DNA of 64,000 bases from Candidatus Onthoplasma sp. (GCA_051883515.1 JBJETW010000008.1:9662-73661), one strand, 5' to 3'; counted from the first letter of the stretch, positions 18,870-58,130 are shown. Program-made: numbers and translations. Notes: generated by a model not told the origin, from the letters alone.

Positions 18870-18936
18870 ATTTATTAATATGATGAAATGGACAAAATTA
18901 TTTTATCATTGTTGAATTTTGTGATATAATATTAAC

Positions 18937-20751
18937 ATGGATTTAGTGCTTGACAAAGTTAAAAGATTGCCCAATGATGCAGGTGTCTACATCATGAAAG
19001 ACAAAGACAATAATGTTATCTATGTGGGCAAAGCAAAAAATTTAAAGAAAAGAGTTAGTCAATATTTCTTAAGAAAACAAGACCATTTAAAAGTAAAAAA
19101 CATGGTCAAAAATGTGGTTGACTTTGATTTTTTTGTTGTTAACGATGAAGTTGAAGCACTTGCGCTTGAAAATAATTTGATAAAAAAATATAAACCTTAT
19201 TATAACATTCTTCTAAAAGACGGGAAAACCTATGCGTACATCAAAGTGAATTTAAAAGAAGATTTCCCGAGATTCGAGATTTCAAGAAGGTTAAATAAAA
19301 ATGACAAATATTTTGGTCCATATATGGCAGGGGTGAGTGCAAAAGACGTTTTGTCTATCATGGATTATGCATTCCCATTGAGAAAGTGCAAGCAAGTTAT
19401 CACCGAAAACAAAAAGCCGTTTAAACCTTGTTTGTTCAAAGAAATGCATATGTGCTCAGCGCCATGTGCAAAATTGATTTCAAAACAGGAATATATGGAA
19501 ATTGTGGACAAGGCAATAAAGTTTTTAAAAGGTGACACAAAAGAAGTTGAAACGCTTTTAAAACAAAAAATGGAAGTCGCTTCAAAAAATGAAAATTTTG
19601 AGACAGCACTCTTGATTCGTGACCGATTGAAAATGTTAGAAAAATTGAAATCTAATGTAATCACCAGTCTTGGTTCGTTGGTTGATTATGACATATTCAA
19701 TCTTGCAACAAGTGGCGAGTTTTCTGCTATGTGTGCTTTGTCAATACGCGGTGGGAAACTTCAAGGAGTTCAAACTTTTGACATTTTAAATTTTTTGGAC
19801 GAAGTTGAAGCATATTCTCAATTCATTATGCAATATTATTCAACACACCCGCTAATTGCAGATGAGATAATTTTGCCAGATATTGACACAAAAGAAATAG
19901 AAATTATATTAAGAGAAAAATCAAACAAAAAAATCACAATAATAAAACCCAAAATTGACAGTGTAAAGCACAAACTTCTTGAAATGGCGGAAAAGAACGC
20001 TCATCTTCATATGGAAAAGAATTTGGACATCAACACAAAAAAAATAAACGCCAGCATTGGCGCGATGAAGCAGTTGCAACAAGATTTAAACTTGAAACAT
20101 ATTCCAAAGCGTATTGAATGTTATGACATTTCGCACACATATGGAACATATACGGTTGCAAGTATGGTTGTTTTAATAAACGGCGAAAAAGCAAAAAAGA
20201 TGTATCGCAAGTTTAAAATCGAAACGGTAGATTTTATTGATGATTTTGCTTCCATGCGTGAAGTTTTAACACGCAGAATGGAAAAATTGAATTCAGATGA
20301 TATAAGTTTTTCTAGTGTGCCAGATTTGATTGTGATTGATGGGGGAAAAGGTCAACTTAGTTCGGCAGTCGAAGTCCTTACAAAATATAATTATCCAAAC
20401 GATTTAATAAGTTTGGCAAAAAGGGAAGAAGAAGTATTCAAGCCAAACGGAAGCAAACCTTATATATTAAAAAAGGGCAGTTATTCGTTAAGACTTTTGC
20501 AACTAGCACGAGATGAAGCGCATAGATTTGCAATAACATTCAATCGTGAGTTAAGGTCGAAAGGAATGTTCAAGTCAGGGCTAGAATCAATTGCGGGTGT
20601 GGGTCCAGCAACAAGAAGAACCTTGATTTCAAATTTCAGGACAATTGAAAACATAAAAAATGCAACTTTAACCCAACTTGAACAAACAAAAGGCATAACA
20701 AAACCCACAGCAAAGAAAATATATGAACATTTTCACTCTGAAAAAGATTAA
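18937..20751 (+). CDS. uvrC: Excinuclease ABC subunit C
   Basis: GIY-YIG motif GVYIM..IYVGKAKNLKKRV; RIECYDISH; IDGGKGQ; RDEAHRFA; HhH. Confidence 0.97.
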   Translation: MDLVLDKVKRLPNDAGVYIMKDKDNNVIYVGKAKNLKKRVSQYFLRKQDHLKVKNMVKNVVDFDFFVVNDEVEALALENNLIKKYKPYYNILLKDGKTYAYIKVNLKEDFPRFEISRRLNKNDKYFGPYMAGVSAKDVLSIMDYAFPLRKCKQVITENKKPFKPCLFKEMHMCSAPCAKLISKQEYMEIVDKAIKFLKGDTKEVETLLKQKMEVASKNENFETALLIRDRLKMLEKLKSNVITSLGSLVDYDIFNLATSGEFSAMCALSIRGGKLQGVQTFDILNFLDEVEAYSQFIMQYYSTHPLIADEIILPDIDTKEIEIILREKSNKKITIIKPKIDSVKHKLLEMAEKNAHLHMEKNLDINTKKINASIGAMKQLQQDLNLKHIPKRIECYDISHTYGTYTVASMVVLINGEKAKKMYRKFKIETVDFIDDFASMREVLTRRMEKLNSDDISFSSVPDLIVIDGGKGQLSSAVEVLTKYNYPNDLISLAKREEEVFKPNGSKPYILKKGSYSLRLLQLARDEAHRFAITFNRELRSKGMFKSGLESIAGVGPATRRTLISNFRTIENIKNATLTQLEQTKGITKPTAKKIYEHFHSEKD

Positions 20752-20948
20752 ATTTGCATTTTTGTAATAACAAACAAAACCATTTGAAATAATTTTTTTG
20801 AGACAACATTAAGAATTTCCTTTTACAAAGGAAAGTGGAAATTATAAATAATAAAATTGGCACTCTAAATAAAAGTTTGCCAATTTTTTTAAATTTTTTT
20901 GCATTTTTGCTTGACATTTGGTTATAATAGGAGTAGAATGGAAGCGAA

Positions 20949-20965
20949 AGTCAAAGAAAGTCAAA
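20949..20965 (+). promoter_or_regulatory. CtsR operator (heptad direct repeat)
   Basis: AGTCAAA-GAA-AGTCAAA matches the RGTCAAA-NAN-RGTCAAA consensus; it lies just downstream of TATAAT (20923) and upstream of the ctsR RBS. Confidence 0.88.
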
Positions 20966-20991
20966 CTTTCAAAAAAAAGGAGGCAAAAGTT

Positions 20992-55784: not shown

Positions 55785-56302
55785 TACAAATTGACAAAAC
55801 AGATAACCTTTATAAGTTTTTAAAAGGGTTAAAAGTTGATGATGTTGATAAAGAATATTTATTATTAGCAAACAATGGGTGCTATAAAATTCAAGATATA
55901 AGAAAATTTTATCTGTCGATGTTTGAACAAACAAAACCTGAAAATATTGAAGACTTAAATCTTGATTTAATCGTTGATTATTATAAAGATGTAAAAAATG
56001 TTAAAAAACTTGGACAAGCAACATTAAAAAAACTGATAAGTGAGTATAAAAAATCAAAAGATGACAATATCAAAGAAAAGATAATATCGTCAAAACTTAA
56101 AGATTTAATGTACATGTGCTTAGAATACAAAAGTTTACATAAAGATGTCGATATTCAAGACTTGATTCAGGTTGCAAACATTGGTTTGTTGACCGCTCTT
56201 GAAAAATACGACGAAACCGCAAAAATAAATTTTAATGATTATCTGATTTATTGGGTAAGAAACGAAATAACAAAAGAATTTGAGGAGAAGAACAATGATT
56301 AA
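55781..56302 (+). CDS. Truncated sigma-70 paralog containing only regions 1.2-2.4
   Basis: [34 protein letters not shown] aligns almost without gaps to the adjacent Rpo[35 protein letters not shown]; the protein ends right after region 2.4. Confidence 0.8.
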
Positions 56303-57395
56303 TGTTGAAGAAATTGAGAAAAAATTGTTGCAACAATTGAAGGACAATCATCAAAGGTCAATAACTGAAGATAGTTTGTGTAGTAAACTTATAAACAAAT
56401 ATGAAGAAATTGACATCAACGAAATAAATCAAATTAAAGAGTATTTAAGTTCAAATGGAATAACCATAACAGACACTGTAAGTGATGTTCCAATTGACGA
56501 TAAAGAATTTGAAGACATAATCAGTCAAATTAATGTTAACGACCCTGTAAAGATGTATTTAAAAGAGATTGGAAGTATTCCACTTTTGACTCCAGAAGAA
56601 GAAATTGAACTCTCACGCCAATACATTGAAGAACATAGCGAATATGCAAGAAACAAACTCATTGAATCAAATTTAAGGCTGGTTGTGAGCATCGCAAAAA
56701 GATATCAAAACAAACACAATATGCCGTTTCTTGATTTAATTCAAGAAGGGAACACCGGACTTATGAAAGCAGTTGAAAAATTTGATTACACAAAAGGATA
56801 CAAATTTTCCACATATGGAACATGGTGGATAAGACAATCAATCACAAGAGCAATCTCAGACCAAGCGAGATTAATGCGTGTTCCTGTCCACATGGTTGAA
56901 ACAATTTTAAAACATGGCAAAGCGGTTAGAGCACTTTTGCAAGAACTTGGAAGAGACCCAACAATTGAAGAGATAGCTGAAAAAATGGGAACAACAGTTG
57001 ACAAGGTTGTTGAAATTCAAAGAATAAGTCAAGACCCAATATCTCTTGAAAGTAAAATGGGGCATGAAGAAGACAGCAAAATCGGTGATTTAATTCCTGA
57101 CGAAAGCGCTTTGTCTCCTCAAGATATTGCAATGCAAAATATGTTAAAAGAGCAACTCATGAGTGTGTTGGAATCGTTGACTCCAAGGGAACAAAAGGTT
57201 ATTCGCTTGCGTTATGGTCTCGATGATTCGCACCCAAGAACATTGGAAGAGGTTGGCCGTGAGTTTTCTGTCACGCGTGAACGTATCCGTCAAATTGAAG
57301 CAAAAGCATTAAGAAAATTAAGACACCCATCTAAATTAAAGAAATTAAGAGACGATTTAGATGACGACGATGAAGGACAAAAAGGGAAAAATTAA
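56295..57395 (+). CDS. rpoD: Primary RNA polymerase sigma factor SigA/RpoD
   Basis: [37 protein letters not shown] and [17 protein letters not shown] motifs; ATG 56295 after GAGGAG. Confidence 0.97.
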
Positions 57396-58096
57396 TGAAA
57401 ACAATATTAGAAATTCAAAAATTAGATAGACAAATCAGGGCGTATAAACGAGAAGTGGACAAATGCCCAGCGAGCGTAGATTTTAAAAAGTATAAACTCG
57501 CTCTTCAAGAGGGAAAATCAAGATTTGAACAACTTGAAAGACAAGCTAGCGAAATAATCAAAAATTATGAAATCGCTTTGAACAAATTTTCAAAAATTAA
57601 AGGTGAAAGTGATATTGTAAAAAAGAGAGGCAAAATTGAACTCTCGCTGGAAGAAGCGGGGAATATTTTGTCTGACGCCAACTCAATGGCAGGCGAGTTG
57701 AGCGAAGAAAACAGGCGTATTGAAGATTTGGTTAGACGCGCTGAAGAAGTTGTTAGAAAGAGTGCAGAACTCTCTTCAAGATTAACAGACGCAAAAATCA
57801 GGGCAAATTCAATCAAAGCGAAGATTGAAGAAAAAAGACAAGAAGTTGCACCAAAAATTGCAGAAATTGAAGAAAAAATCAAAGAACTTGAACCAAAAGT
57901 AAAAGACGCAGATAAATATGCAAAATACAAAGAAATGAAAGAGAAAGGAATTTTCCCTGTGTTCGTTAACCTAGAAGACAATTTTTGTGGCGGTTGCAAA
58001 GTTGAACTTAGTTTGAACTTTATTGAAAAACTTAAAGACAAAAAGATGCTTACTTGTGAACATTGCGGAAGAATTATCATGTATTCAGACAAATAA
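57395..58096 (+). CDS. Coiled-coil plus C4 zinc-ribbon protein (DUF164/CT398-like)
   Basis: Long coiled coil followed by CGGC..CEHCGRI; usual position downstream of rpoD. Confidence 0.82.
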   Translation: MKTILEIQKLDRQIRAYKREVDKCPASVDFKKYKLALQEGKSRFEQLERQASEIIKNYEIALNKFSKIKGESDIVKKRGKIELSLEEAGNILSDANSMAGELSEENRRIEDLVRRAEEVVRKSAELSSRLTDAKIRANSIKAKIEEKRQEVAPKIAEIEEKIKELEPKVKDADKYAKYKEMKEKGIFPVFVNLEDNFCGGCKVELSLNFIEKLKDKKMLTCEHCGRIIMYSDK

Positions 58097-58130
58097 TCAT
58101 TAAATTTCATCACTTCTCATACAATTAAGT

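Follow-up and report, generated by a model that had tools for sequence, protein, structure and literature searches.

Eight genes in a 64-kb stretch of the Candidatus Onthoplasma sp. genome (GCA_051883515.1, JBJETW010000008.1:9662-73661, corresponding to C8:9662-73661; hereafter the window) carry the tetramer CATA exactly 13 nucleotides (nt) before an ATG start codon. These boxes probably belong to the -10 elements of promoters for sigmaE and sigmaK, the sigma factors of the mother cell during sporulation, and would give rise to leaderless mRNAs. A sequence-only reading had listed the eight starts (18869-, 27455+, 30580+, 37517-, 37565+, 43174+, 46763+, and 58131+, the sign denoting the strand), and every box reads as quoted. 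Throughout, the offset of a motif is the distance in nt from its first base to the first base of the start codon. No clear ribosome-binding site is present at any of these genes: GGAG, GAGG, AGGA, and AAGG are all absent from the 20 nt upstream. The start codons are borne out by conserved N-termini in relatives, such as MIY[FL]DN (30580), MxxFxEIEK (46763), and ME[AVS]SF (43174). The first of these is invariant in 20 orthologues and places the start of that gene at 30580, not at the non-conserved upstream GTG (30493) where its longest frame opens; gene callers that rely on Shine-Dalgarno (SD) sequences may miscall such starts.

The observation is confirmed as real and lies far beyond chance. 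With 62 gene starts in the window and a background CATA frequency of 0.005 per offset, 0.31 cases are expected and eight are seen (P(>=8) = 1e-9), so the motif is much commoner at this position than expected. Positional enrichment holds genome-wide as well: among 220 starts that lack an SD sequence, 12 have CATA at offset 13, compared with about one for each of the other offsets. Across 108 orthologous loci from 25 other genomes, with every in-frame candidate start included, offset 13 accounts for 21 loci with CATA, offset 14 for 7, and every other offset for between 0 and 6. Most genes of this organism (~70%) use an SD sequence, with GGAG peaking at offsets 9-10. Counted over the whole genome, 19 starts have CATA at offset 13, and nine of them fall inside the 64-kb window, a clustering with p = 3e-6. 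An open reading frame (ORF) at 27444- was considered as a tenth member and rejected, since its CATA at offset 13 arises from the 27455 start read on the opposite strand and orthologues put its true start at 27381.

The source genome (934,266 bp in 15 contigs, 32% G+C, estimated completeness 97.7%) encodes SigA, SigH, SigF, SigG, SigE, and SigK together with three tandem SigK/E-like paralogues. By best NCBIfam match, the genes at C5:27534 and C11:106102 encode SigE and SigK, respectively, so both mother-cell factors are present. This complement of sporulation sigma factors indicates that the organism, whose genome is very small, forms spores. Searching at family level recovered more than 55 genera with ~1-Mb genomes, nearly all of which have yqfD, and UBA1242 genomes smaller than 1 Mb have been described as carrying unexpected sporulation genes (PMC12306168). 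Outside the window, C11:106102-109295 holds four tandem SigK/SigE-like sigma genes, one SigK-like with a pro-sequence-like N-terminus and three paralogues with N-terminal extensions of ~50 amino acids (aa). Most relatives have only two E/K-like sigma genes, as does the same-genus genome G013. The proposal that the extra SigK paralogues are needed to read the boxes was rejected because most relatives that keep CATA at offset 13 have only sigE and sigK.

The sigmaE and sigmaK promoters of C. difficile and B. subtilis combine a -10 element of the form CATA(T/A)A(T/A)T with an ATA or AC element at -35, 16-18 nt upstream (PMC3789822, PMC7438776). ATA is characteristic of sigmaE and AC of sigmaK, and the -10 boxes of the two are very similar (PMC3789822). 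The tetramer seen here would be the upstream half of such a CATAnnnT-like -10. As a geometric reference we used C. difficile sigmaE and sigmaK promoters with RNA-seq-mapped starts (Table S7 of Saujet et al. 2013, PMC3789822). The C of CATA lies 13 nt upstream of the transcription start (+1) in 11 of 18 sigmaE and 10 of 13 sigmaK CATA promoters (together 21/31), and 12-14 nt upstream in 29 of the 31. Given this spacing, +1 is predicted to fall on the A of the ATG at the eight genes; placing the C 14 nt upstream of +1, with transcription starting on the T, was rejected because 13 nt is the mode among mapped C. difficile starts. A transcript that begins with its own start codon would have neither a 5′ leader nor an SD sequence; its translation would follow the leaderless route, with ribosomes binding to the 5′-terminal AUG. 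At the sequence level, the predicted leaderless starts fit both the C. difficile geometry and the conserved exact spacing.

Weight matrices trained on the C. difficile promoters, with 898 random intergenic CATA sites as control, point in the same direction. The -35 regions of the 19 starts with CATA at offset 13 outscore the random sites (Mann-Whitney p = 5e-6), as do their -10 regions (p = 0.007). Individually clear -35 elements are found at 30580, 43174, 58131, and cwlD, and weak ones at 18869, 46763, and murA. Among starts without an SD sequence, full-promoter matches peak solely at offset 13 (8 vs 0-3). Where TA occupies positions -11/-10, the preceding dinucleotide is CA in 12 cases or AA in 13, with two G-containing exceptions only; where TA lies at -12/-11, in the sigmaA class described below, it is GA, GT, or GC, as expected of a TGn extension. 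As a group, the CATA class does not fit the TTGACA-N17-(TGn)TATAAT arrangement with T at -12. When four matrices were compared in start-anchored fashion, sigmaE or sigmaK scored best for most members, the exceptions being 37517- and 59719-. Start-anchored sigmaA scores are negative for seven of the eight genes (close to 0 for 27455+), with exceptions at 37517- (+5.6) and at 59719- (+8.5).

Orthologue upstream regions, taken from up to 25 genomes of other genera, retain the box. The 58131 family has CATA at offset 13 in eight other genera, AATA at that offset in two, and the box at offset 14 in three. Ten of 19 orthologues of the hydrolase-murF operon have CATA at offset 13, mostly with AC-N16/17 upstream, and so do four of eight for orf18869 (G013, G042, G030, and G008), which has AATA at offset 13 in G010 and the box at offset 14 in one relative. 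A CATA box precedes yqfC in 16 of 17 relatives, at offset 13 in three (G013, G029, and G025) and at offset 14 in one; in the remainder it lies 22-44 nt upstream and is followed by an SD sequence. A TCATATT/GTCTTT-type -35 stands ~14 nt further upstream in this family. For ylmC the box is present in 16 of 20, at offset 13 in G052 and G025, at offset 14 in G013, and with a leader elsewhere. The ddl gene has CATA at offset 13 in G029 and G042, AATA at offset 13 in G013, and the box at offset 14 in G010 and G052, and a CATATAWA box is kept ahead of an SD leader in seven further relatives. Two orthologues of the nifS-like gene (G013 and G042) have CATA at offset 13 and the others a sigmaK-like xATAcTAT box ahead of an SD leader; for cwlD, CATA is at offset 13 in one relative and AATA in six. 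The sole homologue found for the 27455 gene (G013) also has CATA at offset 13. In orthologues where the box is not on the start codon, it is retained 22-45 nt upstream and an SD sequence comes after it. Because the same box stands either at the start codon or ahead of an SD leader, it behaves as a promoter element, not a translation signal. Judged from these upstream regions, the arrangement is a conserved trait of a whole family of roughly 1-Mb spore-forming Clostridia.

The genes behind the boxes also match those of a mother-cell regulon. Outside the window, starts with CATA at offset 13 include cwlD, murA, alr, and a gene for a glycosyltransferase-TPR protein. The corresponding AATA set includes spoIIIAA, ylbJ, yunB, a ylxY/pdaB-like deacetylase, and an M50 (SpoIVFB-like) protease, and with AATA allowed beside CATA the class comprises about 20-25 genes in the genome. 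Orthologues of known mother-cell (sigmaE/sigmaK) regulon genes in this class are yqfCD, cwlD, spoIIIAA, ylbJ, yunB, ylxY/pdaB-like, and ylmC. In C. difficile, sigmaE controls yqfCD, cwlD, a ylbJ-like gene, spoIIIAA, and an alanine racemase gene, murE is controlled by sigmaK, and glmS has both a sigmaK and a sigmaA promoter (PMC3789822, including Table S7). Geometry, -35 scores, conservation, and regulon-gene membership therefore all agree with assignment of the CATA box as a sigmaE/sigmaK-type -10. The broader statement that sporulation mRNAs are leaderless would hold only for a subset of mother-cell-type promoters; others have a 5-15 nt leader and an SD sequence. Ahead of SD genes, sigmaE/K-type matches are near chance in total number and informative only in their enrichment at offsets 17-29, an excess of ~27 genes. 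Examples of such genes are yabP, murC, and murD (protein identities by eye).

The elements and genes of the eight putative window promoters are as follows. In the orf18869-murB operon promoter (18874-18905, minus strand), a -35-like TAAAATAA (18898-18905) and a -10 CATATTAAT (18874-18882) are followed by AAAT and the ATG at 18869. This ATG opens orf18869 (17955-18869, minus strand), which encodes a 304-aa protein with an N-terminal hydrophobic segment and no family match; it heads the operon and overlaps the start of murB (17093-17962, minus strand). The 27455 promoter (27420-27450, plus strand) combines a -35-like TGTGACAA (27420-27427) with a -10 CATAAATAC (27442-27450), and its sigma assignment is ambiguous between sigmaK, forespore sigmaF/G-type, and sigmaA-like. 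Its gene (27455-27991, plus strand) encodes 178 aa, has no family match, and is found in the same genus only. The nifS-like promoter (30544-30575, plus strand) has a sigmaK-like -35 of the AC-N17 form (TATAACAT) and a -10 CATATTGTG, and precedes a gene for a 374-aa class-V aminotransferase resembling cysteine desulfurase (30580-31704, plus strand).

Two promoters stand back to back in the 47-nt intergenic region between ddl and the hydrolase-murF operon (37518-37564), where each promoter's -35 shares bases with the opposite promoter's -10. On the minus strand, the hydrolase-murF promoter (37522-37552) has a -35 GTTGGCAA (37545-37552) and a -10 CATATAAAA (37522-37530), and serves an operon (35290-37517) of an alpha/beta hydrolase gene (36813-37517) followed by murF (35290-36819). 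On the plus strand, the ddl promoter (37529-37560) has a -35 TGCGACAA (37529-37536) and a -10 CATATATAA (37552-37560), and its D-alanine--D-alanine ligase gene (37565-38638) is single-copy in the genome.

The remaining three promoters are all on the plus strand. A sigmaE-like -35 AGACATTA and a -10 CATATATAG (43138-43169) precede the gene for a 111-aa YlmC/YmxH-family sporulation protein with a PRC barrel (43174-43509). The yqfC-yqfD promoter (46727-46758) has a -35 AAGTCTTT of the GTCTTT type, comparable to that of C. difficile CD0129, and a -10 CATAAATTT, ahead of yqfC (46763-47017) and yqfD (47014-48102), which together span 46763-48102. The 58131 promoter (58095-58126) pairs a TCATT-type -35 AATCATTA with a -10 CATACAATT that equals the sigmaE consensus CATACAAT. 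The 58131 gene (58131-59174) encodes a 347-aa polytopic membrane protein with the motif IGAGFASGKE and no significant match in Pfam or NCBIfam. The names "ykvI-type" and "SBP-like" that had been attached to genes of this group were not confirmed, as Pfam and NCBIfam name none of 18869, 27455, and 58131.

A ninth gene had been proposed as a member of the class. At 59719-, CATA does lie 14 nt before a GTG start, as quoted, and SD tetramers are likewise absent from the 20 nt upstream. The gene, for an SLT lytic transglycosylase with a GTG start (59171-59733, minus strand), fits better into a separate, larger leaderless class, given its TATCAT at -12 to -7 and its sigmaA score of +8.5. Among starts without an SD sequence, TGnTAnnnT stands at offset 15 in 28 cases against ~1 expected, and TAnnnT at offset 12 in 47, most with TTGACA exactly 17 nt upstream. 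The resulting TTGACA-N17-TGnTATAAT-N6-ATG is the layout of a canonical extended -10 sigmaA promoter, predicted to place +1 on the A of the ATG at ~45 genes. Seven members lie in the window (8498-, 10087-, 10190+, 18937+, 25972-, 30207-, and 59719-), and the ten annotated members are all housekeeping genes (RuvX, PrfB, Ung, Der, SmpB, MnmE, Nth, TruA, RecX, and HolB). The -10 of this class lies one base further from the ATG than that of the CATA class. The leaderless layout is therefore not specific to sporulation genes; the two classes together account for ~7% of genes, which is unusual for Firmicutes.

Several observations weigh against reading the CATA boxes as mother-cell promoters of leaderless genes. 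GTG, a start codon that works poorly on leaderless mRNAs in E. coli, opens a few of the orthologues. Taken one by one, the -35 regions score modestly (p 0.005-0.2 each). The AC of a sigmaK -35 overlaps the sigmaA -35 (TTGACA); given an 18-nt spacer, sigmaA could recognise several members (27455, 37517-, 37565, and C9-6082), and by start-anchored score 37517- of this genome looks sigmaA-like. Finally, murA, murF, ddl, and alr were checked and each is single-copy and also required during growth.

The last point bears most directly on the cell-wall genes. Nearly the whole peptidoglycan-precursor pathway (murA, murB, murC, murD, murF, ddl, and alr) stands behind CATA/AATA-type boxes, at 17093-17962 and 35290-38638 in the window and at C8:80656, C8:85118, C4:88332, and C9:18502 elsewhere in the genome; some of these genes are predicted to be leaderless and others to have a 10-nt leader. 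Because ddl, murF, murA, and alr are single-copy and needed in growth, strictly mother-cell-specific promoters are unlikely for them, as is a purely sporulation-specific role. It is probable that sigmaA also uses, or overlaps with, the promoters of ddl, the murF operon, the murB operon, murA, and alr. For these cell-wall genes only (ddl, hydrolase-murF, orf18869-murB, murA, and alr), a dual arrangement is a serious if tentative possibility, in which a weak sigmaA reading during growth would be reinforced by sigmaK or sigmaE when the mother cell makes cortex. AC-N16/17-CATA and TTGACA-N18-TAnnnn are almost identical in geometry, and C. difficile offers the parallels of glmS and murE noted above. 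Against a dual reading, the -10 lacks T at its last position in several instances.

An explanation of the CATA boxes as ordinary promoters of sigmaA, with a -10 that is non-extended and slightly displaced (TAnnnn at -11 to -6), is unlikely; the genes would then be leaderless without being sporulation-specific. In its favour, leaderless sigmaA genes form a clear class in this genome, growth depends on the single-copy peptidoglycan genes, TTGACA-like hexamers occur at -35 of 27455 (GTGACA), 37517- (TTGGCA), and 37565 (GCGACA), and sigmaA is the best start-anchored matrix for 37517- and 59719-. Yet sigmaA scores are strongly negative for most members, CA or AA stands in place of the TGn extension typical of sigmaA promoters in this organism, and the C of CATA is conserved across genera. 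The members are enriched in classical sigmaE-regulon genes, whereas the sigmaA class is housekeeping. A purely sigmaA-type assignment of 37517- is itself weakened by the CATA at offset 13 with AC-N16/17 in 10 of its 19 orthologues.

We consider it very improbable that transcripts begin further upstream, leaving CATA within a short unstructured leader as a regulator site or unconventional translation signal. AT-rich regions contain many -10-like hexamers, and a TTGACA lies at 27404-27409 upstream of 27455, but -35-like elements stand at the right spacing from the boxes, the 47-nt ddl/murF intergenic region has no room for other promoters, and orthologues carry the box at a variable 22-45 nt ahead of a normal SD sequence, unlike a translation signal. 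Forespore (sigmaF/sigmaG) promoters are the least probable source of the boxes: AATA-type -10 and GnATA-type -35 elements are superficially similar and the forespore matrix is marginally best for 3 of the 19 starts, 27455 and C13+8766 among them, but CATA 13 nt before +1 is found in 21 of 72 mother-cell promoters of C. difficile and in only 1 of 41 of its forespore promoters, the G-rich bases that sigmaF/G promoters have upstream of an AATA-type -10 are absent here, and the members are mother-cell genes (spoIIIAA, yqfCD, ylbJ, and yunB).

Other features of the window are recorded here in their own right. Divergent from 27455, a small conserved ORF on the minus strand (27100-27403) has its true start at 27381 (MPRDF...) with a GGAG SD sequence, and precedes an S8 subtilase gene (26004-27122). 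AC-N17-CATACGAAC is its putative promoter, the C being at position 27403, 22 nt upstream of the ATG, and a near-palindromic TTGTGACAA -35 region is common to this promoter and that of 27455. The gene pair has a CATATAAT box and an SD leader in ~16 of 20 relatives and is leaderless in G052. Between dnaG and rpoD, a 173-aa ORF (55781-56302) matches sigma-70 region 2 only and looks like half a sigma factor. At 48095-49468, a YbeY endoribonuclease domain and an Era-type GTPase with a KH domain are encoded in one 457-aa ORF, an apparent fusion of two normally separate neighbour genes. An Rfam scan of the window returned zero matches.

The boxes thus resemble the mother-cell promoters of C. difficile and B. 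subtilis in -10 and -35 sequence, in the 13-nt distance from C to +1, and in shared members (yqfCD, cwlD, spoIIIAA, ylbJ, alanine racemase, and mur genes). They differ in that C. difficile promoters feed leadered mRNAs, whereas here the box abuts the start codon with spacing kept across genera; in C. difficile, only 15 potentially leaderless genes were seen across the genome (PMC3789822; PMC7438776). Leaderless mRNAs are also reported to be rare in C. phytofermentans, and 3.4% of Firmicutes genomes are of leaderless type (PMC6028130). Leaderless genes of GeneMarkS-2 "group C", Actinobacteria, and Deinococcus-Thermus have a Pribnow box ~10 nt before the start (PMC6028130, PMC3160421, PMC12340547), and are alike in their -10 at a fixed short distance, the lack of an SD sequence, and the prevalence of AUG starts. 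With TGnTATAAT-N6-ATG, the sigmaA class found here follows that layout in textbook fashion. Those cases concern the housekeeping sigma factor, whereas the second class seen here, its box displaced by one base, would depend on alternative, developmental sigma factors, and only ~7% of genes appear leaderless, most genes being SD-led.

Sigma-dependent supply of cell-wall precursors has precedents. B. subtilis provides peptidoglycan precursors for the cortex in a sigmaK-dependent manner. In C. difficile, sigmaK-dependent glmS and murE (PMC3789822 Table S7) are alike in being precursor genes with mother-cell-type promoters. Unlike that case, nearly the whole single-copy pathway is boxed here and several of its genes are predicted to be leaderless. 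No leaderless regulon of a sporulation sigma factor turned up in our literature searches; the arrangement is a combination of two known things, mother-cell promoters and leaderless genes.

For an uncultured family, CATA at offset 13 provides a pointer to mother-cell genes that can be read from sequence, and it suggests candidate sporulation roles for the orf18869 family, the 58131 membrane-protein family, C14-80972, and the glycosyltransferase-TPR protein. One bacterium would possess two leaderless classes, one read by a housekeeping and the other by developmental sigma factors, told apart by a one-base shift. This raises the question of why strongly reduced genomes keep leaderless sporulation mRNAs across dozens of genera. 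That leaderless expression does more than compact these reduced genomes, and works as a layer of sporulation control in the family, is an unlikely possibility. If it were so, mRNAs with a 5′-terminal AUG made by mother-cell sigma factors would be translated without SD pairing, separately from bulk translation during spore formation. Because almost the whole single-copy precursor pathway stands behind such promoters, a further corollary is that peptidoglycan might be made mostly as spore cortex, with little wall in growth.

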